Part shown: positions 2,597 to 12,420 of the stretch, piece by piece
How the letters are laid out: every line of letters begins with the position of its first letter
Position numbering within the stretch: position 1 is the stretch's first letter
From: Gemmatimonadota bacterium
Lineage (GTDB): Bacteria > Gemmatimonadota > Gemmatimonadetes > Palauibacterales > KS3-K002
Direction of reading: 5' to 3'
Assembly: GCA_020344375.1 (NCBI GenBank)
Contig: CP070823.1
Span: 1,613,706 to 1,626,927 of the forward strand
Length of the DNA stretch: 13,222 nucleotides
Made by a program: the position numbers and the translations under genes
Notes under the pieces: model-generated
Seen by the model: only the letters and a program-made list of their open reading frames with translations
The model's database searches: none
Told to the model about the DNA's origin: nothing

Positions 2597-2759
2597 TGGG
2601 CGATTGTGCCGTGCACCGCCGGGCCAGCCGGAACGAATAAAGAGGCCGCTGGTGGGTATTCCAGTGTAGAGAACACAGCAAGGTCAAGAACCCGCGGGGA
2701 TACCAGTGCGATCGGGCGAAAGCAGGCACGGAGTCGTTGACGTTCTCAGGTGGGGGCGC

Positions 2760-3020
2760 ATGGAGCAACTGGCCAGGGGGTATTTCATGCTAGGAGTGCG
2801 GAGGCTGTACTTGCCGCGTTGGGTTCCCTGGTGCGCCCAGTTGATCCTCCTCCCGCTCTGGCTGTGGCTGACCTACGGTGTCTTCCTTGGCGAGCGGGGC
2901 CGGGCGGACCTCGGGATCGGCAACTGGATCGTGGTGAGCCTCGTGCTCGCCGTGGTCTCGTTCTATCTGTTCTTGCTGGGTTACCGGAAACTGCCCGCAG
3001 GCCTCGACGAAGGGTGCTGA
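2760..3020 (+). CDS. Small membrane protein of unknown function, 86 aa with two predicted TM helices. The track ORF begins at ATG 2706; I prefer ATG 2760.
   Basis: Translation MEQLARGYFMLGVRRLYLPRWVPWCAQLILLPLWLWLTYGVFLGERGRADLGIGNWIVVSLVLAVVSFYLFLLGYRKLPAGLDEGC. Two long hydrophobic segments flank a charged loop. ATG 2760 is preceded by 'aggtggggg' at SD distance. No recognisable family. Confidence 0.4.
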   Translation: MEQLARGYFMLGVRRLYLPRWVPWCAQLILLPLWLWLTYGVFLGERGRADLGIGNWIVVSLVLAVVSFYLFLLGYRKLPAGLDEGC

Positions 3021-3307
3021 CTCGCCATAACAAGCTCCTGTGGAGCGGCGCCTCCCGCGACCTGCAGCACCCCGCCTGTGACCTTCCGGACATCATTGGC
3101 TGCATCGCCGTATGATCCCGCAGCTTGCGGGAACCGGCGAGGAACCTCTCGATAGCCCTTGAGGGAAGTGAAGATGTGGCCTACGTAGCAACGGCCTACG
3201 GCAAGCATGGTCGGCTGGGCACCAACGTCGGCTGCGGCGCTGTTCCGGACGGCTGAGCCTTGCGGGGCGCACGCCCAAGAGCTACATTGCGAACAACAAC
3301 AGAGATC

Positions 3308-3346
3308 CCGCCACTTTCGAGCTCCGGCTCGGTGGCGGTTTTTTGT
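3308..3346 (+). terminator. Rho-independent terminator on the + strand: compound hairpin ccgccac-ttt-cgagc-tccg-gctcg-gtggcgg, followed by TTTTTTGTT.
   Basis: Read directly: outer 7-bp stem ccgccac/gtggcgg (3308-3314 / 3332-3338), inner 5-bp stem cgagc/gctcg with a 4-nt loop, then a T6 run at 3339-3344. No A-run lies upstream, so it is unidirectional for +. It lies 288 nt after the nearest upstream stop (3020) and 82 nt before the KaiC-like gene. Confidence 0.55.
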
Positions 3347-3427
3347 TGGGTTGCCGTTGTCCGCTGACTTCCCCCCCTCGGCCCCCAACCGTCGGCGTCT
3401 ACTCGACGCTGATACGGGTTCGCCATC

Positions 3428-4897
3428 TTGTTACAGAATACAAGCTCTTTCGGCATCGGGGTTCTCGACGAACGTCTGAGCGGTCCCGTCTCCGGTGGCC
3501 TGCACGTGGTCATCGGCGGCCCGGGCACCGGTAAGACGGTCGTCGCGCTCCAGTTCCTGTACGAAGGCATCCGGCGGGGCGGGCGAGTGGCGATGCTGAC
3601 GCAGGCGCGGCCCGGAGACGTGGTCGACCTGGCGGCCTCCATCGGCATTGATATGACGCCCCACCTGCGCTCCGGTCGCTGGGTGCTGCTAGGCTATCAG
3701 TCGGGGTTCCGCGAGCGCTACCGCCGTAGCATCGAGCCCGGCGAGCTGTTCCAGGAGCTGGAGGAGTTCGTCACAGCCGAGGCCGTGCCCGATCGGCTCG
3801 TCATCGATACCTGCAGCCCGCTGGTGGAGTCCCGCGAGTCGGGGAACGGGGCGGAGCATCTGATTGACCTGCTGAGCGGCGTGAGCAGCACCGTGCTGCT
3901 CACCTTCGCGGCCGAGCACCCCGGCGCGCTGGACAGCGGCTTCGATCTTATCTCGCAGCGCGCGGCGCTCGTGCTCCATCTGATACTGAGCAGCGAGGGG
4001 CGCCGCGAGATCCTCGTGCGCAAGACCCCGGGGCCCGTTGAGTCGACGGGCCCCATCACCTTCGAGATCCGCGACGGGCTGGGGATCGTGCCGGCGCAGG
4101 CGATCCAGGGGAAGCGGCGCAGCGACCTGGCGCCGGAGGTGCGGCGCCGCGTGCTGTTCGTTGACGTGCCGGCCGATCTGCCGGCGGAGCTGCGCATCTG
4201 GCTGCAGGAGTCGTTCGAGCTGGTCTACACCGCCGATCCCGTGGATGCCTTCCCCGAGCTGGCACGTCGCGACTTCGGTCTGGTGGCCATCCACATCGAC
4301 CGGCGTAGCGTGGACCGCGGGCTGCACGTGATGTATCAGCTCCGCCGCGCCGCTAGCCGGCCGCCCATCCTGGTCATGTCGCCGGTCGATGTGCGGGCCA
4401 GTGACCGGGCCCGCGCGCTACGCGCCGGTGCGGACGACTTCATCTCCGGCGGCCTCGATCCAGAGGAGCTGGCGTCGCGCATCGAGGCGTTGCTGCGGCG
4501 CGGTCGCACCGATGTCGCCGATGGGGAGGAGACCCTTGAGGCGCCGAAGCCAGAGCGGCCCGAGGGACCCGACGAGCCGGCGGACGTGCATGAGATCATC
4601 CGCGCGCGACTCACGTCGCCGGGATCGCCGATCTTCTCGCTGATCTTGCTGCGGGCGGGCAACGGCAGCCGACTGGAGGAGCTGGCCGAGCACGTCGCCC
4701 GGCAGATGCGGCATGATGGTGGCGACCGCATGAACGTGAGAGAGGAACGCGTGGAGGTCTACTTGCACGGCGCGATGCACAAGCACGCCGAAAGCTTCCT
4801 CAAGCGCGTGCGCACGGATCGCTTCGCGCGGGTGGGCGCCGTGGTTTACACGTCACCCACCGACCGTGACGAGCTGCTCAAGATCATCGACCAGTAG
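3428..4897 (+). CDS. Three-domain regulatory protein, 489 aa. It has an N-terminal KaiC/RecA-like P-loop domain (~1-230) in which the catalytic Glu-Glu pair is substituted. A degenerate CheY-like receiver domain follows (~238-360). The C-terminal ~110 aa domain is unrecognised.
   Basis: 'SSFGIGVLDERLSGPVSGGLHVVIGGPGTGKTVVALQFLYEG' matches the KaiC/RadA N-terminal motif with Walker A GGPGTGKT. The Walker B-like 'RLVIDTCSPL' corresponds to KaiC 'LFILDASPD'. The segment 'VAMLTQARPGD' aligns with KaiC-CI 'VFVTFEETPQD', so E-E becomes Q-A. The receiver region is 'RRVLFVDVPADLP ... LVAIHIDRRS ... PILVMSPVD ... GADDFISGGLDPEEL'. It has the acidic pocket residue, the candidate phospho-Asp in 'IHID' and the Ser of beta4, but lacks the conserved Lys of beta5 (K to G). 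Start is TTG 3428, since an in-frame TGA at 3410-3412 blocks any upstream extension; there is no obvious SD. The stop is 1 nt before the next start. Confidence 0.85.
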   Translation: MLQNTSSFGIGVLDERLSGPVSGGLHVVIGGPGTGKTVVALQFLYEGIRRGGRVAMLTQARPGDVVDLAASIGIDMTPHLRSGRWVLLGYQSGFRERYRRSIEPGELFQELEEFVTAEAVPDRLVIDTCSPLVESRESGNGAEHLIDLLSGVSSTVLLTFAAEHPGALDSGFDLISQRAALVLHLILSSEGRREILVRKTPGPVESTGPITFEIRDGLGIVPAQAIQGKRRSDLAPEVRRRVLFVDVPADLPAELRIWLQESFELVYTADPVDAFPELARRDFGLVAIHIDRRSVDRGLHVMYQLRRAASRPPILVMSPVDVRASDRARALRAGADDFISGGLDPEELASRIEALLRRGRTDVADGEETLEAPKPERPEGPDEPADVHEIIRARLTSPGSPIFSLILLRAGNGSRLEELAEHVARQMRHDGGDRMNVREERVEVYLHGAMHKHAESFLKRVRTDRFARVGAVVYTSPTDRDELLKIIDQ

Positions 4898-4898
4898 C

Positions 4899-7064
4899 AT
4901 GGCTGAAGTACGCTGGCCCTACTGGGGACGTTTCACTGCGCTCGCCGCTGTCTCGCTGAGCCTGCTCCTCTTCTTCGTCTTCGGGTTTCTTCCCCAGCGA
5001 TTCCTGCTCGAGCTCGACTTCAGCGAGAGCGGGTTCGCCTATCCGGTCATCCGTTCGCCCCTGCCAACGCCGCCGATCCCACCGCCCGCGCCGGTGCAAC
5101 GGCCCGTGGCGCGCGGCCCGGCGGAACGCTTCTGGGCGGAGTACCTGCCGCTGGTTCAGGCCGGCGCTGATGAGGCGGCGCTGGGGCTCTTGCGCGCCTA
5201 CCTGGCTCGTCAACCGGAGGACATGGGGGCCCAGCTCGAGTACGGGCGTGCGCTCTGGCGGTTGGGTCGGCTAGATGCCGCGATCGGCGAGTATCGCCGC
5301 GCCCTCGCCCGCGCGGGGGACTCTGAGCTCAAGAGAGAGCTGGCGCGGCTCTACGTCACTGCCGGTCGCTGGGCTGAGGCCCTGGCCACCTACAAAGCCC
5401 TCGCGAGCGCGGCGCCGGATGATCTTGAGCTGCTGCGCGAGTACGCGCAGACGGCGACCTGGGGCGCGCGCTACGAACTGGCGGTTCAACTCTATGCGCG
5501 ACTCGTGGAACTCGACCCGGATGACGCGTCGCTGCGGCTCGAGTGGGCGCGCGTCCTCTACTGGTCGGATCAGCCAGAGCTCGCCGCGGAGGTCCTGGAT
5601 GGGTTGCCGGCCGGTCATGCCGGACCTGGTTTCGACTCGCTGCGGGCGGCGATCGTTGCGGCGCTGCCGCCACCGGATACGGCGACTCTGAGCCTGCTGG
5701 AGCGCGCCCGCGGCCTGGCGCTGGCGGGCGACGTAGCGTCGGCGCTGGCGATCTACCGGCTGCTAATGAGCGAGGGGCTGGCGGCCGACTCGCTGCTGTT
5801 GGAGATGGCGGACGTCTTCGAGTACCGGGCGAACGCGCCGGACAGCGCTCTGAGCTACCTGCGCGCCTACCTGGCTCGTCACCCGGACGGCAACGAGGTG
5901 CGGCTACGCATGGCCCAGCGGCTCGCCTGGTCCGGCCGGCTCGCTGAGGCGGAGGCGGACGCCGAGGCCATCCTGCGGGTGCAGCCGGAGAATGCCGAGG
6001 CCTGGGCGCTGCTGGGAGAACTGCGTCGCTGGCGTGGTGATCGTGCGGGCGCGGTGGAGGCCTATCAACGGTCGTTGGACCTCACCCCGGACGAGGCCAC
6101 GGCCGCTGAAGGCCTCGCCGCGCTCCGCGCGCAGGTGGATGCCGAGCTTTCGGCGCAGGGCAGCATCGGGCCGGCGAGCGGGTTCGAGTACTTCGCCGAC
6201 TCGGACGAGTTCAGTCTGGCACGCTGGCGCGCCGGCTGGACGGCGGGCGTGCCACGGACGCGGGGCGGCGTAGAGGTGGCGCTGGAGCGGCTTGAGGGCT
6301 TCGAGCTGACGGGTGAGCAGGATGGATTGACCGCCGCCGCCGCCCGGGCCGTAGGTGAGCGCTGGTGGCTGGAGGGCGGCCTGCACACGACGGCCACGCT
6401 GGGCGCCTGGGTTCCGGAGTCGGGCGCGCAAGCGCAGCCGATCATCGGGCTGGTGCTGGCGGCGCCGAGCTGGGGCGGCGCGTCCTATCGCTTCGAATAC
6501 CGGCGCGAGCCCGCCTACCGGGAGACGGCGACGCTGGAGGCGGCAGCGGCCGAGCTGCGCGTCGACGTGGCCGGGCTCGAGACCTATCGCCCGATCGCGG
6601 AGCGCTGGGACCTGTCGGCTCGCGCCCGCGTGGCCCGCTTCTCCGGCGTCGGCGACGCCAACCTGCGGGGCGACGCCGCGCTGGGCGTGTTCTTCCGTCC
6701 GGACGCGAGGTGGATTCTCGGGTTCGAGAGCCGTGGGCTGACTTTCGGCGATCCGGCGCCGCGCCCCGGGCGGCGACTCTACTGGGACCCGAACTGGTCG
6801 TGGGAGAACACGCTGCTCGTCGCCTGGCGCGGGGCGCCGGCCCCGGGCTGGGAGCTGGAGGCCCGAACGACTCCGGGCCTCGCCTGGCTGGACGAGCACG
6901 AACTCGACCCGACCGTTGTCTTCGTGTTCGGGGCGACCCTGGATGCCCGTTATCGGGTGGGCGTCTGGACGCTGCAGGGACGTGCCGGCTTCAGCCAGAG
7001 CCGGGCCGGCGGCTACCGGGTCTTCCGCCTGGAGCTGGGGCTGAGCCGCGGGTTCGGAGGCTAG
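4899..7064 (+). CDS. PgaA/BcsC-like exopolysaccharide export protein, 721 aa from ATG 4899. It has a signal/anchor helix, a Pro-rich linker, multiple TPR repeats (~80-420) and a C-terminal predicted beta-barrel porin domain (~430-721). The track ORF starts 33 nt earlier at GTG 4866.
   Basis: TPR-like repeats are 34-aa helical units, e.g. 'AQLEYGRALWRLGRLDAAIGEYRRALA', 'AEAWALLGELRRWRGDRAGAVEAYQRSLDLTPDE' and the recurring 'LRAYLARQPED/LRAYLARHPDG'. The C-terminal third shows alternating hydrophobic/polar dyads with aromatic girdle residues and an aromatic-rich end ('VFRLELGLSRGFGG'), typical of outer-membrane beta-barrels. ATG 4899 lies 1 nt after the upstream TAG, i.e. coupled. The N-terminus is hydrophobic (AAVSLSLLLFFVFGFL). 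Confidence 0.8.
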   Translation: MAEVRWPYWGRFTALAAVSLSLLLFFVFGFLPQRFLLELDFSESGFAYPVIRSPLPTPPIPPPAPVQRPVARGPAERFWAEYLPLVQAGADEAALGLLRAYLARQPEDMGAQLEYGRALWRLGRLDAAIGEYRRALARAGDSELKRELARLYVTAGRWAEALATYKALASAAPDDLELLREYAQTATWGARYELAVQLYARLVELDPDDASLRLEWARVLYWSDQPELAAEVLDGLPAGHAGPGFDSLRAAIVAALPPPDTATLSLLERARGLALAGDVASALAIYRLLMSEGLAADSLLLEMADVFEYRANAPDSALSYLRAYLARHPDGNEVRLRMAQRLAWSGRLAEAEADAEAILRVQPENAEAWALLGELRRWRGDRAGAVEAYQRSLDLTPDEATAAEGLAALRAQVDAELSAQGSIGPASGFEYFADSDEFSLARWRAGWTAGVPRTRGGVEVALERLEGFELTGEQDGLTAAAARAVGERWWLEGGLHTTATLGAWVPESGAQAQPIIGLVLAAPSWGGASYRFEYRREPAYRETATLEAAAAELRVDVAGLETYRPIAERWDLSARARVARFSGVGDANLRGDAALGVFFRPDARWILGFESRGLTFGDPAPRPGRRLYWDPNWSWENTLLVAWRGAPAPGWELEARTTPGLAWLDEHELDPTVVFVFGATLDARYRVGVWTLQGRAGFSQSRAGGYRVFRLELGLSRGFGG

Positions 7065-7067
7065 GCG

Positions 7068-8381
7068 ATGCGAAGTCGGCGTCCGTTCCTGCTCGTTATA
7101 GCCGCGGCGATCATCCTTGTTATCGGCCTCCTGCTCCTGGTCTGGGCCAGCCGGGCGCCGCTCGAGGTGCAGACGTTCATCGTGCGGCTCTCGATCGTCA
7201 CGCTGGTTCTGTTCCTGGTCATCCTCATCGCCCGCTACTTCACGCTGCTCTGGTTCGGCTACCTGCACCACCTCGAGTCGGGCGCTGAGGCGCCGCGGAA
7301 CGGGGTGGAGTATCCGCCGGTCTCGCTCCTCGTGCCGGCCTATAACGAGGGGAAGGTGATCGAGTCGGCGCTGAAGAGCCTGCTGAAGCTCGACTACCCG
7401 CACTACGAGATCATCGTGGTGGATGACGGCTCGACCGACGACACGCTGGCCAATGCCTCGCGCATGGCCGGCGGGTACGGGGGTTGCCGGGTGCGGGTGA
7501 CGACGAAGAGGAACGGCGGCAAGGCGACCGCGCTGAACGCGGGGCTAGCGATGGCTGAGTATCCCATCGTGCTCTGCATGGATGCCGACTCGCGGCTCGA
7601 ACCAGGTACGCTGAAGTCGGCGGTCGTGCACTTCCGCGATCCGTCGGTAGGCGCGGTGGCGGGCAACGTGAAGGTGGTGAACCGGCGGAACCTGTGGACG
7701 CGGCTGCAGGCACTCGAGTACGTCGAGGGCCTCAACATGGCGCGACGCGCGCAAGGGTTCCTCAACGCGGTGAACATCGTACCCGGGCCGATCGGGCTGT
7801 TCCGGCGCGAGGTGCTCCTGGCAGTGGGCGGCTACGAGCGCGACACCTTCGCCGAGGACGCCGACCTCACGCTCAAGATCCTCACGGCCGGCTGGAAGAT
7901 CCGCTACGAGCCGAAGGCGGTCGCTTGGACGGAAGCGCCGGAGCGGCTGGTGGATCTCATCCAGCAGCGCTATCGCTGGACGCGCGGGATCCTGCAGGCG
8001 CTAGGCAAGCACAAGCGCACGCTCGTCTTCCCACTGCCGGATCTACCGCTCTGGCTGTCGCTGGTGCAGATGGGGTTCGAGGCGGTCGTCTGGCCGGCGA
8101 TGAACGTTTACGGCCACCTGTTCTTCGCCTACGTGGCGATCGCCTTCGGATTGGGTGAGATGCTGCTGGCGTGGTGGGTGCTGCTCACGCTGCTCGACCT
8201 CGTGGCTGCGCTGGCGAGCGTCGGTATGGAGGAGGAGCAGCTGTCGCTGGTGCCCCATGCGCTGGTCTATCGTTTCTTCTTCATTCTGTTGATCGATGTC
8301 GTGAAACTCTGCTCCACGCTGGAGGAGGGCCTCAACCTGCGGATGGGCTGGGGGAAACTGGAGAGGGTGGGACGCATATGA
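7068..8381 (+). CDS. GT2-family processive beta-glycosyltransferase (polysaccharide synthase) of the PgaC/IcaA/NodC/HasA type, 437 aa. TM helices flank a cytoplasmic catalytic domain.
   Basis: Canonical synthase motifs are present: 'VSLLVPAYNE', 'IIVVDDGSTDDT' (DDG/DXD), 'CMDADS' (DAD), 'GNVKVVNR', 'FAEDADLT' (ED) and 'QQRYRWTRG' (QxxRW). Two N-terminal and several C-terminal hydrophobic helices. Length matches PgaC/IcaA (~410-440 aa). SD GGAGG lies 7 nt upstream, and the ATG is 3 nt after the TPR gene stop. Confidence 0.9.
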   Translation: MRSRRPFLLVIAAAIILVIGLLLLVWASRAPLEVQTFIVRLSIVTLVLFLVILIARYFTLLWFGYLHHLESGAEAPRNGVEYPPVSLLVPAYNEGKVIESALKSLLKLDYPHYEIIVVDDGSTDDTLANASRMAGGYGGCRVRVTTKRNGGKATALNAGLAMAEYPIVLCMDADSRLEPGTLKSAVVHFRDPSVGAVAGNVKVVNRRNLWTRLQALEYVEGLNMARRAQGFLNAVNIVPGPIGLFRREVLLAVGGYERDTFAEDADLTLKILTAGWKIRYEPKAVAWTEAPERLVDLIQQRYRWTRGILQALGKHKRTLVFPLPDLPLWLSLVQMGFEAVVWPAMNVYGHLFFAYVAIAFGLGEMLLAWWVLLTLLDLVAALASVGMEEEQLSLVPHALVYRFFFILLIDVVKLCSTLEEGLNLRMGWGKLERVGRI

Positions 8382-8671
8382 GCATCATCCAGATCATGGT
8401 GACGATCATCATCGTGACCATCCTGGTCACGGTGATCCTCGGTGTGGCTTCCTACGGCGCCTACTGGCTGCGTCGCGGTCGGCGCCCGGCGCCGCCCGTG
8501 GCGGTGGATACGAGGCCGCGCTTCTTCTACCGCTACGTCCCTGAGGATCAGGTTGCGGCCGAAGACACAGCAGCCGGGTCGGAGGTCGCGTCCGAGTCCG
8601 GCGAACCGGAGTCAGTGCCGGAGCTGGCGGCGAGTTCCGCCGATGCCGGGAATGGCCGGTCGCGTCGCTGA
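8378..8671 (+). CDS. Small single-pass membrane protein with an acidic disordered tail, 97 aa: MSIIQIMVTIIIVTILVTVILGVASYGAYWLRRGRRPAPPVAVDTRPRFFYRYVPEDQ.... Candidate accessory subunit of the synthase (PgaD/IcaD-like by position). The track lists it within a longer 8171-8671 ORF.
   Basis: ATG 8378 overlaps the synthase stop (ATGA at 8378-8381), the classic coupling seen for pgaC-pgaD and icaA-icaD. The N-terminus is an Ile/Val-rich TM helix, followed by a basic stretch and then an Asp/Glu/Ser-rich tail. Nothing upstream of 8378 in this frame is needed. Confidence 0.55.
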   Translation: MSIIQIMVTIIIVTILVTVILGVASYGAYWLRRGRRPAPPVAVDTRPRFFYRYVPEDQVAAEDTAAGSEVASESGEPESVPELAASSADAGNGRSRR

Positions 8672-10526
8672 GCCTCCAGGCCCGCGCACGCCCTGGACGT
8701 GGGCCGGCGCGATTCTGCTGCTGGGCACGCTGGTCGCCGGGCTGGTCGGCGCGGCGATCCTGCTCTGGCGTTTCATCGACGTCGATGCGCTGCTCGAAGC
8801 GAACGATGAGATGCCGCCGTCGGTCGAGGAGGTGGTCGCCGAGATCGTGCTGCCGGAGCTCCCTGCGACGGTCGCCTGGACGGCGTACCTGTACGAGTCC
8901 CCGCGCTCCGCTCGCTTCTTTCCCAATCAGGACTACTACTCGGCCTTGCTGGTTCGCTGGGGTTCGTTGCTCGAGGTTGTCGGCGCAACGGTTGAGCGCG
9001 TCTCCGGTGCAGCGGCCATCGATTCCCTCGGCCAGGGCGAGCTGCTGGTGATGCCCGCCGCGGTCTGCTTGGACGACGAGGAGCGAGATGCTCTGCTCCG
9101 CCACGCTGAGCGGGGCGGTCACATGCTGGCCACCTGGGCGCTGGGCGCACGCGACGAGGAGTGCGACTGGCTGGGGTACGAGTTCCTGAGGGACGTGGCC
9201 GGCGCCGAGACGGCCGGGACCCTGGAAGGACGACCTCCCACCTACCTTGTAGCTCCGCACGGCAGCGTGATCGCGGCCGGCCTCCCCCCTGGCTCACGTA
9301 TCGAGCTCAGAACCGAGCCGTGGATCACGCTGCGTGCGCACGCATCGAGCGTCTTCTGGTCCGACTGGGCGCTCAACCCTCGGCCGGCGCCCGAGGGCGG
9401 TGCGGGCGGCGCGGCCCTCGCCCATAGGCTCGATTCCGGTGGTCGCTTCACCTGGTTCGGCTACCGGGTCGATGTCGCTGCCAGCGAACCCGACCAGCGT
9501 CTTGTCGATCGCCTGGCCCAGAACGCGGCGCTCTGGGCGGCCGGCCACGTAGTGGCGGACGTGGATCCCTGGCCGGGTGGCTACGAAGCCGCGATGGCCG
9601 TGACCCTGGACGTGGAGCACAGCTTCAGGAACAGCCGGCGCCTGGCACGGCGCTTCGGTGCCATCCACGTCCCCGTCACCTTCTTCGTCGTGACCCAGCT
9701 CGCCCTTGAGCATCCCGAGCTCGCCCCTGCGCTCCGTGCTGTGGGCGAGATCGGCAGCCACAGCGTCGACCATCGCCAGATTGCCGGCCGGAGCTGGAAC
9801 ACCCAGCTGGCGGGTGCGAATCAGGCGCGAGCCGACATCGCGGCCTGGTCCGGCGATCTGCCCCTGGGATTGCGACCGCCGCGTGAGTTGTTCGACTCGC
9901 TGACGCTGGAGGCGTGGCGGCGGTCCGGCGGCACCTACCTGGCCGCGTCGAACGGCGCGCGCAGTGCCGCTCCGGACATCTTCGACGTTGAGTCGGGCGC
10001 GATTGTCGTGTTGCCGCGCGTCGTGGACGATGACTACACGGTGATAGTGACGCGCGGGCAGACCCGGCCGGATTCGTTGCGCGCCGCGTTCGCGAGCGGG
10101 CTCGAGAAGATGAGGTCGCTCGGTGGTCTCGACCTTGTCACCCTGCACACCCAGCTCGTCGATTCCGATCGCCGCCTGGACGCGTTGGAGTCGGTGGTCC
10201 GTCTGGCCCAGGAGGCCGGTGATGTTTGGATCGCTGGCGCGTCCGAGATCGCTGACTGGTGGATGCAGCGCGCCGGGCTCGAGCTAGGGGTACGGGAGCG
10301 CGCCGACCGCAGCGCGATCCTCTGGGTCCACAATTCCGGAACCGAGCCCGTGACCTCGGCCTGGCTTCGCATCTATCTGCCGGGGGAGCGCGCGACCTAC
10401 GCGGCCCCGGAAATCGGCGAGGTCATCCCCGAGTCCCACTACGGTCCCTGGGGCCTGCGGGTGAGGCTGCCGATAATCGAGCCGGGTGAGTCCCTCGGGA
10501 TCCTTCTGCCTCGGCGCGCCGGCTGA
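8643..10526 (+). CDS. Membrane-anchored two-domain protein, 627 aa from ATG 8643. It has an N-terminal TM helix, an unrecognised ~280 aa extracytoplasmic domain and a C-terminal CE4/NodB-type polysaccharide deacetylase domain of the 'DVE' motif-1 variant. It is the candidate PgaB/IcaB-equivalent. The track ORF starts at GTG 8442.
   Basis: CE4 motifs: motif 1 variant 'AVTLDVEHSF' (the T-[LV]-D-V-E-[DH] form seen in EPS-locus deacetylases, instead of TFDDG), motif 2 'GSHSVDH' (H-S-x-x-H) and motif 3 'LRPPRELF' (R-x-P-[YF]-like). The TM helix 'WAGAILLLGTLVAGLVGAAILLW' directly follows M-8643/M-8652. The first 200 nt of the track ORF overlap the upstream gene in another frame and are not needed. 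Stop is TGA 10524-10526. Confidence 0.8.
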   Translation: MPGMAGRVAEPPGPRTPWTWAGAILLLGTLVAGLVGAAILLWRFIDVDALLEANDEMPPSVEEVVAEIVLPELPATVAWTAYLYESPRSARFFPNQDYYSALLVRWGSLLEVVGATVERVSGAAAIDSLGQGELLVMPAAVCLDDEERDALLRHAERGGHMLATWALGARDEECDWLGYEFLRDVAGAETAGTLEGRPPTYLVAPHGSVIAAGLPPGSRIELRTEPWITLRAHASSVFWSDWALNPRPAPEGGAGGAALAHRLDSGGRFTWFGYRVDVAASEPDQRLVDRLAQNAALWAAGHVVADVDPWPGGYEAAMAVTLDVEHSFRNSRRLARRFGAIHVPVTFFVVTQLALEHPELAPALRAVGEIGSHSVDHRQIAGRSWNTQLAGANQARADIAAWSGDLPLGLRPPRELFDSLTLEAWRRSGGTYLAASNGARSAAPDIFDVESGAIVVLPRVVDDDYTVIVTRGQTRPDSLRAAFASGLEKMRSLGGLDLVTLHTQLVDSDRRLDALESVVRLAQEAGDVWIAGASEIADWWMQRAGLELGVRERADRSAILWVHNSGTEPVTSAWLRIYLPGERATYAAPEIGEVIPESHYGPWGLRVRLPIIEPGESLGILLPRRAG

Positions 10527-10693: not shown

Positions 10694-10963
10694 GTGAAAT
10701 TCGACGAAGACCCGAGAATAAGAGTTAGCCGGAAGATCCTCGCGCTTGCCTGGCTCTTCTTCAGCCTCTATCTGGCCGCCATCATGGGCCTGTCCTTCAA
10801 CGTGGGCACAGAACCTTACCTCTGGGGACTGCCACGCTGGGTGGCGATCGGCAACATCATCGTTCCTGTCGTCTTTGTACTCCTGCTGATCTTCGTCGCC
10901 GAGAGGTTCATACCCGACGTGCCCATGACAGAGGACACGGGGGACACAGAGGAAGAGCGATGA
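10694..10963 (+). CDS. Small 2-TM membrane protein, 89 aa, of the kind found upstream of SSS-family transporters (DUF485/YjcH-like or DUF997/YhdT-like). Probable transporter accessory subunit.
   Basis: GTG start, with strong SD AAAGGAGG at 10679-10686. Two hydrophobic helices (LALAWLFFSLYLAAIMGL; VAIGNIIVPVVFVLLLIFVA) and an acidic C-tail. The stop overlaps the start of the downstream symporter (ATGA at 10960-10963), the arrangement typical of yjcH-actP and yhdT-panF pairs. Confidence 0.7.
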   Translation: MKFDEDPRIRVSRKILALAWLFFSLYLAAIMGLSFNVGTEPYLWGLPRWVAIGNIIVPVVFVLLLIFVAERFIPDVPMTEDTGDTEEER

Positions 10964-12420
10964 ACTGGGCAATCGTCTCTTTTCTCGCTTATACAGGAAT
11001 ACTGATCGCTATCGGAGTCTGGTCCTACCGGATTGTCGAGAAGGTCCCGATCACCAAATACGAGAATGAATTCTACGCGGCGGGTAGAGGCCTGGGCGGC
11101 ATCGTGGTTGCGCTGATCATAGCTGGTGGGTTGGCCAGTGCGGGGACCTTCATCGCTGGACCGGGCATGACCTATGCCTACGGATATTCCTGGGTCCTGA
11201 TCAACAACTTCCAGATCTTCATGAACCTGCTGCTCCTGGCTCCGATCGGCATCATTGTCGGGATCGTGGCGCGCAGGGTGAATGCGGTCACCTACCTGGA
11301 CATCTTCAGGGCTCGCTACCAGAGCAGGGCGATCATCGTGATCCTGACGCTCTTCGTGACCGTGTTCTTGTTGCCTTACATGGCCACTCAGTTCGTGGGG
11401 GCCGCCAGAGTCATCGCTCGGATGACTGGGATGGGTTACCTGGCTTCCCTGGCTCTCGGCTCACTGGTGGTCCTGGTCTACTGTGTTCTGGGTGGCATGC
11501 GAGGTACATCGCTTGCGACTCTGATTCAGGGCATCGTGATCACGCTTGGATGCATCGTGCTGTTCGTCGGAACCGTCGTGTACGCCGGCGGATTCCAGCG
11601 GTCGACCGAGATCCTGGCTGCCCAGGACATCAACTTCCTCTCACCGAGCATGGGTGGTGCTTTCCCGCCCATGTTCGCCTTCTCGCTCGCCTGCCTGACA
11701 GGCTATTTCATCGTCGGCATGCCGCACGCGATGTTAGGGGCGCTGACCTACAAGAACACGAGAGCGCTCAAGCGAGGCATCTGGATGGGCGCGATTCTGG
11801 TGCTTCTCTGGACACTGCTCTTGTGCATGGCCGGGGTCATCGGACGCTCGCTGGTGCCTGACCTCGCTGTGCCGGATGAGATCGCTCCCTGGCTGGCCAT
11901 GCACGTGGTACCGGAGGCGCTGGGCGGCATCGTCTTGGCGGGCATCGTGGCCGGCATCCAGACCACAGTGGCGGCCATGGCGATCATCATCACCTCCAGC
12001 ATCGCCAGTAACCTCTTGAGAGAGCTCAAGCCGGATGTTTCGGCCGAAAGAGTAAAATTCGCCTCCAGGGTCACCATGGGAGCCTGCCTGGCCATAGCCA
12101 TAGGCTTCGCTCTGCTGCAGCCTAGGCTGATCCAGTGGATCATCTTCTTTTCGATAGGCGGACTGGTCACCGCCACCTTTGGGCCGATACTCCTGGGGCT
12201 GTTCTGGAAGCGTGGGAATCAGTGGGGCGCCATAGCCTCGATATGCTGGGGGATGGTCATCTACGGGCTGGGAAACACGGTTGTGCCCCAGATGAGTCTC
12301 TGGGGCACGCATCCCTCCTTCGTTGCCGTGATCAGCTCGGTGATCGTCTACGTTCTGGTCAGCTCGGCGACGCCTCCCCCATCAGAAGAGATAGCCCGGA
12401 CCTTTTGGGGAAAGCGGTGA
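10960..12420 (+). CDS. Sodium:solute symporter (SSS) family transporter, PutP/PanF/ActP-like, 486 aa with ~13 TM segments.
   Basis: Polytopic membrane protein with SSS hallmarks: an N-terminal 'FLAYTGILIAIGVWS' helix, then 'FYAAGRGLGGIVVALIIAGGLASAGTFIAGPGMTYAYGYSW' (the GR-x-LG / G-x-x-xG core of SSS TM1-2), and a Gly-rich TM set throughout. Translationally coupled to the small 2-TM gene upstream. Confidence 0.9.
   Translation: MNWAIVSFLAYTGILIAIGVWSYRIVEKVPITKYENEFYAAGRGLGGIVVALIIAGGLASAGTFIAGPGMTYAYGYSWVLINNFQIFMNLLLLAPIGIIVGIVARRVNAVTYLDIFRARYQSRAIIVILTLFVTVFLLPYMATQFVGAARVIARMTGMGYLASLALGSLVVLVYCVLGGMRGTSLATLIQGIVITLGCIVLFVGTVVYAGGFQRSTEILAAQDINFLSPSMGGAFPPMFAFSLACLTGYFIVGMPHAMLGALTYKNTRALKRGIWMGAILVLLWTLLLCMAGVIGRSLVPDLAVPDEIAPWLAMHVVPEALGGIVLAGIVAGIQTTVAAMAIIITSSIASNLLRELKPDVSAERVKFASRVTMGACLAIAIGFALLQPRLIQWIIFFSIGGLVTATFGPILLGLFWKRGNQWGAIASICWGMVIYGLGNTVVPQMSLWGTHPSFVAVISSVIVYVLVSSATPPPSEEIARTFWGKR

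Follow-up and report, generated by a model that had tools for sequence, protein, structure and literature searches.

We describe here a cassette of five genes on the + strand of a 13,222-nt stretch of high-GC DNA from Gemmatimonadota contig CP070823.1 (hereafter the window, in which the cassette occupies positions 3428-10526). The cassette is best read as a synthase-dependent exopolysaccharide system whose lead gene encodes a distant homolog of BcsE, a cyclic-di-GMP-binding regulator otherwise associated with E. coli-type (type II) cellulose secretion. It recurs across Gemmatimonadota, has so far been seen only there, and no description of it was found in the literature searched. We put the probability of this reading as a whole, with BcsE-type gating of the synthase included, at about 0.6. 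As judged from the encoded sequences, what differs from known systems is the pairing, in Gemmatimonadota, of a BcsE relative that retains its P-loop with a non-cellulose, PgaC-like synthase. The five genes and their predicted products are:

3428-4897, + strand: lead gene, BcsE-like tripartite regulator, 489 residues, TTG start
4899-7064, + strand: exporter, with a hydrophobic helix at residues 6-43, tetratricopeptide repeats (TPR) at residues 74-420 (5118-6158) and a 16-strand porin at residues 422-718 (6162-7052)
7068-8381, + strand: processive family-2 glycosyltransferase (GT2; PgaC/IcaA-like), 437 residues, two N-terminal and about three C-terminal transmembrane (TM) segments
8378-8671, + strand: single-pass membrane protein, 97 residues, with a TM segment at residues 6-24, a basic stretch and a conserved P..FF.R motif
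8643-10526, + strand: CE4 polysaccharide deacetylase, 627 residues, with a TM segment at residues 23-41 and a CE4 domain at about residues 309-545 (9567-10277)

The cassette is a conserved, self-contained and tightly coupled synthase and export module that is co-conserved with its lead gene. An initial annotation of the window, made from the letters alone, had described five genes with junctions of 1 nt, 3 nt, ATGA and 29 nt, and direct reading bears out each of these. The lead gene ends with TAG at 4895-4897 and is separated by a single C (4898) from the exporter ATG at 4899. The exporter ends with TAG at 7062-7064, followed by GCG and the GT2 start codon at 7068. The GT2 gene and the small open reading frame (ORF) share an ATGA overlap (8378-8381), and the small ORF stops at 8669-8671, which gives a 29-nt overlap with the deacetylase gene if the in-frame ATG at 8643 is used as its start; the corresponding overlap in locus L001 is 20 nt. 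The order BcsE-like gene, TPR-porin, GT2, small gene and CE4 gene is also present in L001, L003, L007, L009 and L010, and partly so in L004, L008, L011 and L012. No related locus that is long enough to be informative departs from it, whereas the flanking genes differ between loci, in agreement with the earlier suggestion of a self-contained module. Identity of the lead protein to that of the window is 60-70% in L001, L003, L009 and L010 and about 30-34% in L004, L007 and L008. A word-index search yielded about 76 relatives of the lead protein, and all those carrying an organism name belong to Gemmatimonadota. A scan of a genome collection, which is not a measure of distribution, returned at least four true relatives among the matches listed, again all from this phylum. 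L007 was considered as a possible member of another phylum, which was ruled out by its PheS sequence; this places it in the Longimicrobiaceae, within Gemmatimonadota, and the cassette therefore spans at least two classes of the phylum.

Two of these loci show features of their own. In L012 (2524-7662; Gemmatimonadaceae) the regulator, porin, GT2 and small protein genes are present with no adjacent CE4 gene, and the next long ORFs lie on the opposite strand. In L008, the regulator gene is preceded at a distance of about 3 kb by a gene of the GAF-GAF-GGDEF diguanylate cyclase type (3671-5230).

The lead protein is composed of three domains, seen also in its AlphaFold2 (AF2) model (predicted local distance difference test score, pLDDT, 81.8):

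3428-4123, + strand: KaiC/RecA-like N-domain, residues 1-232, with Walker A GGPGTGKT at 3515-3538 and Walker B Asp127
4139-4507, + strand: pseudo-receiver, residues 238-360, with a near-invariant R323-A-S-D326 at 4394-4405
4583-4894, + strand: degenerate GGDEF-like domain, residues 386-489, with R428...G432-D433 at 4709-4726

Pfam searches recovered KaiC/ATPase in this protein with an E-value of 2.8e-18 and Response_reg with 29.3 bits, under the Pfam cut-off of 30.2, whereas the isolated C-terminal domain, with a modelled alpha-beta-alpha-beta-beta-alpha-beta-alpha secondary structure, has no Pfam match. An alignment of 33 family members revealed a conserved P-loop, a receiver-like domain without conserved phospho-acceptor Asp or Lys, and a conserved C-terminal domain of about 100 residues. 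When compared by hhalign with E. coli BcsE alone, the family profile aligned over 161 columns (E 3e-4). Against eight BcsE sequences taken from plasmid records, the alignment extended over 445 columns and all three domains (query 7-482, target 8-482; probability 95.2%, E 2.4e-8). A Foldseek search of the whole PDB with the model placed at rank 1 chain 9fnn_U, which belongs to the E. coli Bcs macrocomplex and has 511 residues, aligned over the full length with an E-value of 1.8e-17. Ranks 1, 3 and 4 are all Bcs-macrocomplex chains with full-length alignments, and we read them as BcsE, since the label BcsE is carried by chain E of the rank-1 entry and the BcsE2F2 subcomplex appears at rank 4. 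In addition, 3 of the 33 family members gave a weak match to the Pfam family CBP_BcsE (PF10995; best E 4.6e-4). BcsE itself consists of a RecA/KaiC-like N-domain, a degenerate receiver and a degenerate GGDEF domain (PMC7439463). The lead protein has this tripartite architecture in the same order according to AF2, hhalign and Foldseek, and the homology extends over the full length at only about 14% identity. From these profile and model comparisons we conclude that the lead protein is a distant BcsE homolog over its full length. The initial annotation had instead seen a novel KaiC-receiver phospho-regulator, a view that does not survive the lack of a conserved acceptor Asp and Lys, the presence of a third, GGDEF-like domain, and the BcsE homology of the whole protein. 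Its author had also known of no pga or ica locus with such a lead gene; the regulator architecture turns out to be already characterised, in cellulose systems and not in pga or ica loci.

A hidden Markov model search of 1.84 billion representatives returned 210 relatives at E <= 1e-30, and conservation was counted in 77 full-length, three-domain representatives. The most conserved positions of the family are G334 (77/77), R323 (76/77), D433 (74/77), R460 (73/77), R428 (72/77), D336 (70/77), R327 (68/77) and D326 (62/77). In the hhalign alignment R323-A-S-D326 falls on R306-A-T-D309, the I-site II of BcsE, and G432-D433 falls on G417-D418 of the RTGD motif that forms I-site I. In BcsE an intercalated dimer of cyclic di-GMP (c-di-GMP) is held between R306-A-T-D309 of the degenerate receiver and R415-T-G-D418 of the degenerate GGDEF domain, and both I-sites have been validated experimentally (PMC7840130, PMC11470070). 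The lead protein thus shares with BcsE an RxxD at the I-site II position; its conserved Arg...Gly-Asp, with the spacing R-x3-G-D, is a less certain counterpart of I-site I, and we infer candidate c-di-GMP binding at R323/D326 and R428/G432-D433. By contrast, the signature of a working two-component receiver (acceptor Asp, acidic pocket, Thr/Ser and Lys) is lacking in the pseudo-receiver: an Asp stands at the phospho-acceptor position in only 23/77 representatives, beta1 has no acidic pair, and G, S or other residues stand where a receiver has its conserved Lys.

The N-domain sets the lead protein apart from BcsE. The Walker A motif GGPGTGKT is intact, its Lys is kept in 63/77 representatives and the Walker B Asp in 67/77, whereas BcsE shows a gap at the position of the P-loop in the hhalign alignment and has thus lost it. 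In the first (CI) domain of KaiC, residues E77 and E78 are catalytic. This Glu pair aligns with Q59-A60 of the regulator and is not conserved in the family, which moreover has one KaiC-like domain where KaiC has two. Since the Walker motifs are kept and the catalytic pair is not, the N-domain probably binds ATP and hydrolyses it weakly. The N-domain of BcsE, for its part, has been called catalytically incompetent in published work.

The remaining genes encode what appears to be a synthesis and export apparatus. The GT2 matches Glyco_tranf_2_3 of Pfam (1.3e-38), its best NCBIfam family is PgaC_IcaA (TIGR03937; 214 bits, short of the 422-bit equivalog cut-off), and E. coli PgaC aligns with it at 35% identity (E 1e-44). 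All four motifs of processive synthases, of the D, DxD, ED and QxxRW types, are found in it (DD119, DAD172, ED263 and QRYRW300) together with five hydrophobic segments arranged as in PgaC, as was anticipated when the gene was first annotated as a processive GT2. The exporter matches many TPR families in Pfam and NCBIfam, and its AF2 model (pLDDT 88.7) consists of a long N-terminal helix, a linker in which pLDDT falls below 50 over residues 34-54, TPRs and a 16-strand barrel. The isolated barrel has no Pfam match; in the model it is a porin of the PgaA/BcsC/PelB type, in line with the TPR and beta-barrel exporter proposed at the outset. A membrane-embedded processive GT2 and a TPR scaffold fused to a 16-strand porin, the defining parts of the synthase-dependent secretion class, are thus both present. 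The fifth protein matches Polysacc_deac_1 (2.2e-10; 41 bits against a cut-off of 23.1) and carries the Asp, His-His, Arg-Pro and Leu-x-His motifs of the CE4 family as TLDVE321, HSVDH373, RPP411 and LHT500. Motif 1 is a variant, and the best PDB relative, 3rxz, has TFDVD at the position aligned with TLDVE. With its single N-terminal TM segment, the protein corresponds to the TM-anchored CE4 enzyme with a DVE motif that had been described. Overall, the profile searches of Pfam and NCBIfam back the KaiC/ATPase, TPR, Glyco_tranf_2_3 and Polysacc_deac_1 assignments of the initial annotation.

Two regions of these proteins are worth recording separately. Residues 1-44 of the exporter (4899-5030) are predicted to form one long helix, with a hydrophobic core of 19 residues and no lipobox, in which Y8, W9, P32, Q33, R34, F35, F41, E43 and S44 are at least 90% conserved; it has more the look of a retained membrane anchor or interaction helix than that of an ordinary cleaved signal peptide. 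In the CE4 protein, the part of residues 1-308 (8643-9566) that links the TM anchor to the CE4 domain, some 260 residues long, gave only weak, sub-threshold matches to DUF4350 and a beta-galactosidase trimerisation domain.

The small membrane protein is encoded 3' of the GT2 gene in L001, L003, L007, L009, L010 and L012 as well. Residues S25, Y26, A28, R32, R35, P37, F50 and R52 are invariant, and the basic stretch and the P...FF.R motif lie in the cytosolic tail. In the cellulose system the single-pass protein BcsF recruits the N-domain of BcsE to the membrane by beta-strand addition (PMC7439463, PMC11470070), and by analogy the small protein may play a comparable role. It was also tried as a homolog of PgaD and rejected (hhalign probability 0.2%; no PgaD Pfam match at E <= 10; one TM segment here).

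The cassette was compared with the characterised secretion systems closest to it. With PgaABCD and IcaADBC, which make poly-N-acetylglucosamine (PNAG), it shares a common logic of processive GT2, small membrane accessory protein, CE4 de-N-acetylase and, in diderms, TPR plus 16-strand porin, while gene order differs. The exporter was considered as a PgaA ortholog and set aside, with no significant BLASTP similarity and a negative PgaA porin test (TIGR03939); nor did the CE4 protein give a significant BLASTP match to PgaB. PgaB is a lipoprotein in which the CE4 domain is N-terminal and a glycoside hydrolase domain is C-terminal, whereas the protein described here is TM-anchored, with the CE4 domain in mid-protein behind an unrelated N-terminal domain. 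The initial annotation had recognised all four Pga functions in the order A-C-D-B. Of that proposal, only the resemblance of the synthase to PgaC is borne out by sequence. Because PgaA, PgaB and PgaD lack significant sequence similarity to their respective counterparts in the cassette (exporter, deacetylase and small membrane protein), the term "rearranged pga operon" overstates the kinship, and "PNAG-like synthase-dependent system" is on the sequence data a fair description. In E. coli, c-di-GMP is reportedly sensed jointly by PgaC and PgaD, a finding credited to Steiner et al. 2013; in the cassette, the candidate for this sensing role is a protein of its own, the BcsE-like regulator. PelD offers a further point of comparison, as a degenerate-GGDEF c-di-GMP receptor that activates synthase-dependent secretion; it sits in the membrane and contains GAF and GGDEF domains, and GT4 is the family to which the glycosyltransferase of the Pel system belongs.

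With the E. coli bcs operon the cassette shares a small single-pass protein and a membrane-anchored periplasmic polymer-modifying enzyme, represented there by BcsF and BcsG (PMC11470070). BcsE heads its own operon (PMC7439463, PMC11470070), and the lead regulator is likewise promoter-proximal. The two systems differ in their synthase, which here is a PgaC-like GT2 without a PilZ domain and not BcsA, and in their hosts, Gemmatimonadota in one case and beta- and gamma-proteobacteria in the other.

Taken together, these comparisons suggest the following scheme. The inner-membrane GT2 of the PgaC/IcaA type would polymerise a UDP-N-acetylhexosamine, most likely UDP-N-acetylglucosamine, and translocate the growing chain; the membrane-anchored CE4 enzyme would strip some of the N-acetyl groups in the periplasm; and the polymer would leave the cell through the TPR-plus-porin protein of the PgaA/BcsC/PelB class. 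The product would most likely be a PNAG-like, partly de-acetylated poly-N-acetylhexosamine. Activity would be controlled after translation by the BcsE-type lead product, which may bind c-di-GMP between its pseudo-receiver and GGDEF-like domains, through R323-x-x-D326 and R428...G432-D433, and ATP, probably poorly hydrolysed, at its intact P-loop. The cytosolic tail of the small protein would hold the regulator at the membrane, where it would activate or stabilise the synthase.

Several observations weigh against this scheme and against the BcsE relationship on which it leans. The lead protein of the window has no match to CBP_BcsE (PF10995) at E <= 10 and reaches no Pfam threshold for BcsE or GIL. 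A search of the window with Pfam and NCBIfam found no BcsQ, BcsR or BcsA-type genes, the first two being partners of BcsE. As a BcsF homolog the small protein had to be rejected (hhalign probability 5.6%); the pattern that the two share by eye, a TM segment, a basic stretch and FF, is no evidence of homology. The GGDEF-like domain of the cassette-linked subfamily has R-x3-G-D in place of R-x-x-D, and in the alignment with the eight BcsE sequences R428 stands opposite R412 of BcsE and not opposite the I-site R415. An insertion of two residues could plausibly have shifted the I-site Arg to R428, because the canonical R-x-x-D is present at this second site in remote family members. The conserved RxxDR on helix alpha4 could instead serve a receiver-type dimerisation, and an N-domain that retains its P-loop may work differently from that of BcsE. 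Remote relatives of the regulator, moreover, adjoin a Tad-like gene or two-component genes, so that the architecture is not specific to polysaccharide synthases. Two such three-domain relatives, at L063 (171-3024) and at the P0320 locus, carry a canonical RxxD in the GGDEF-like domain; one of them adjoins a Tad/TadG-like gene, with GGDEF genes nearby, the other HisKA_3/LuxR two-component genes, and no glycosyltransferase is adjacent to either. As to the gene-neighbourhood check suggested in the initial annotation, across the Gemmatimonadota loci the regulator adjoins the GT2 cassette, whereas the remote regulators P0319 and P0320 do not adjoin a GT2, and the architecture is consequently broader than the cassette. 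P0259, another distant relative, is encoded on a short contig. Finally, the sugar and its linkage are not deducible from sequence.

These points bear on three other explanations. Were the lead protein a KaiC-like ATPase with a working receiver, control of the operon could come from an unlinked kinase that phosphorylates the receiver Asp, or from autophosphorylation of the KaiC type. The KaiC match (2.8e-18), the receiver-like fold and sequence, the intact P-loop and an Asp (Asp291) at the acceptor position of the window protein would all suit such a phospho-regulator. We nevertheless hold it to be very improbable, given a Response_reg score (29.3) below the gathering score of 30.2, an acceptor Asp in 23/77 representatives with no beta1 acidic pair and a replaced Lys, a single KaiC-like domain whose catalytic Glu pair is missing, and a C-terminal domain that is GGDEF-like, with no DNA-binding output domain in the protein. 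Somewhat more credible, yet still unlikely, is that the lead protein serves, driven by nucleotide, in assembly or as a scaffold, in a manner comparable to FlaH/ArlH of the archaellum or to BcsQ, which would not sense c-di-GMP and would use its Arg and Asp motifs for oligomerisation or partner binding. Against this, its two most conserved motifs align with the validated c-di-GMP sites of BcsE (PMC7840130), the second of them less exactly, and the canonical RxxD is restored in remote members; scaffold and sensor roles are in any case compatible, as BcsE performs both.

The alternative that we take most seriously, while still considering it doubtful, concerns the polymer and not the regulator. 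"PNAG-like" may describe the machinery only, the product being not a beta-1,6 PNAG but a beta-1,4 chitin- or chitosan-like polymer, an NfrB-type poly-N-acetylmannosamine or a mixed hexosamine glycan. In favour of such a product, the GT2 remains below the PgaC_IcaA cut-off (214 bits, where 422 are required) and has further matches to profiles of NodC and chitin synthases; none of the other three proteins (porin, CE4 enzyme and small protein) is a Pga ortholog; and CE4 motif 1 is of the DVE type found in PuuE-like and 3rxz-like enzymes. On the other hand, PgaC_IcaA is by far the best synthase family, with 214 bits against 111 for NodC, and the combination of GT2, CE4 enzyme and TPR-porin follows the logic of PNAG secretion. 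A PNAG-like polymer produced under BcsE-type control is thus the reading that we retain.

Upstream of the lead gene, the leader contains two features that appear to belong to the cassette:

3260-3288, + strand: promoter-like element, with a -35 hexamer TTGCGG (3260-3265), a 17-nt spacer and a -10 hexamer TACATT (3283-3288); a presumed promoter
3307-3344, + strand: terminator-like hairpin, with arms 3307-3314 and 3332-3338 plus an inner stem, followed by T6

The promoter-like element, which an earlier scan of the window had not listed, has the consensus TTGCG(G/C), a spacer of 17 or 18 nt and TA.ATT across six loci (the window, L001, L003, L009, L010 and L011), in which the columns CTTGCG and TA.ATT are invariant. 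The hairpin has a folding energy of -31.6 kcal/mol (z = -5.2; 0/200 shuffles as good), begins 19 nt past the -10-like hexamer and about 12 nt past the probable start site, and recurs in each of the six loci, where its inner stem shows some compensatory changes. A conserved GCTGAC.TCCCCCC block follows 3' of the hairpin in the same six loci. The trio of promoter-like element, hairpin and C-rich block (window 3260-3390; L001 9826-10000; L003 3868-4000; also L009, L010 and L011) is kept although the upstream genes differ, which indicates that the hairpin is part of the leader of the operon itself and not simple insulation from the upstream gene. The intrinsic terminator initially placed at 3308-3346 is thus real as a hairpin with a T-run; its interpretation as an insulator is not upheld, as it travels with the operon and lies behind the promoter-like element. 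An attenuator or a short leader RNA may fit this arrangement better. When the whole window was searched for Rfam families at E <= 1, two chance-level matches only were returned, none of them in the 3020-3427 leader. E. coli BcsE binds NusE/S10, and any parallel between this interaction and the cassette leader is speculative and by analogy.

Further out, a small ORF upstream of the leader (window 2750-3020) has no Pfam or NCBIfam match; its counterpart at the same position in L001 (8847-9644) is 43% identical. Downstream of the cassette, at 10694-12420, an ATGA overlap joins a small membrane ORF with a weak PRK10633 match to the 5' end of a gene for a PanF-like sodium/solute symporter (300 bits against a 328-bit cut-off), and the GC content drops from about 0.70 in the cassette to about 0.58-0.62. 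No tRNAs were found in the window.

To our knowledge, BcsE has so far been treated as an accessory specific to the cellulose machines of beta- and gamma-proteobacteria. The lead protein described here might be an ATP-binding form of BcsE that integrates ATP state and c-di-GMP to gate a poly-N-acetylhexosamine synthase and possibly feeds back on its own operon through the promoter-proximal leader terminator, echoing the interaction of E. coli BcsE with NusE/S10. This extended proposal is unlikely, though if it were true, BcsE-type regulators would constitute a portable, phylum-spanning control module for synthase-dependent polysaccharide secretion and not an enterobacterial cellulose speciality. 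The finding of a homolog with an intact P-loop alongside a PgaC-like synthase in a distant phylum suggests that the BcsE-type regulator predates, or moves between, polysaccharide systems, and comparison of the lead protein with BcsE should help to show what the N-domain does. For a PNAG-like synthase lacking both PilZ and PgaD, the lead protein is in addition a candidate c-di-GMP receptor. Few Gemmatimonadota have been cultured, and the cassette suggests that a biofilm-matrix polymer is made in this phylum.

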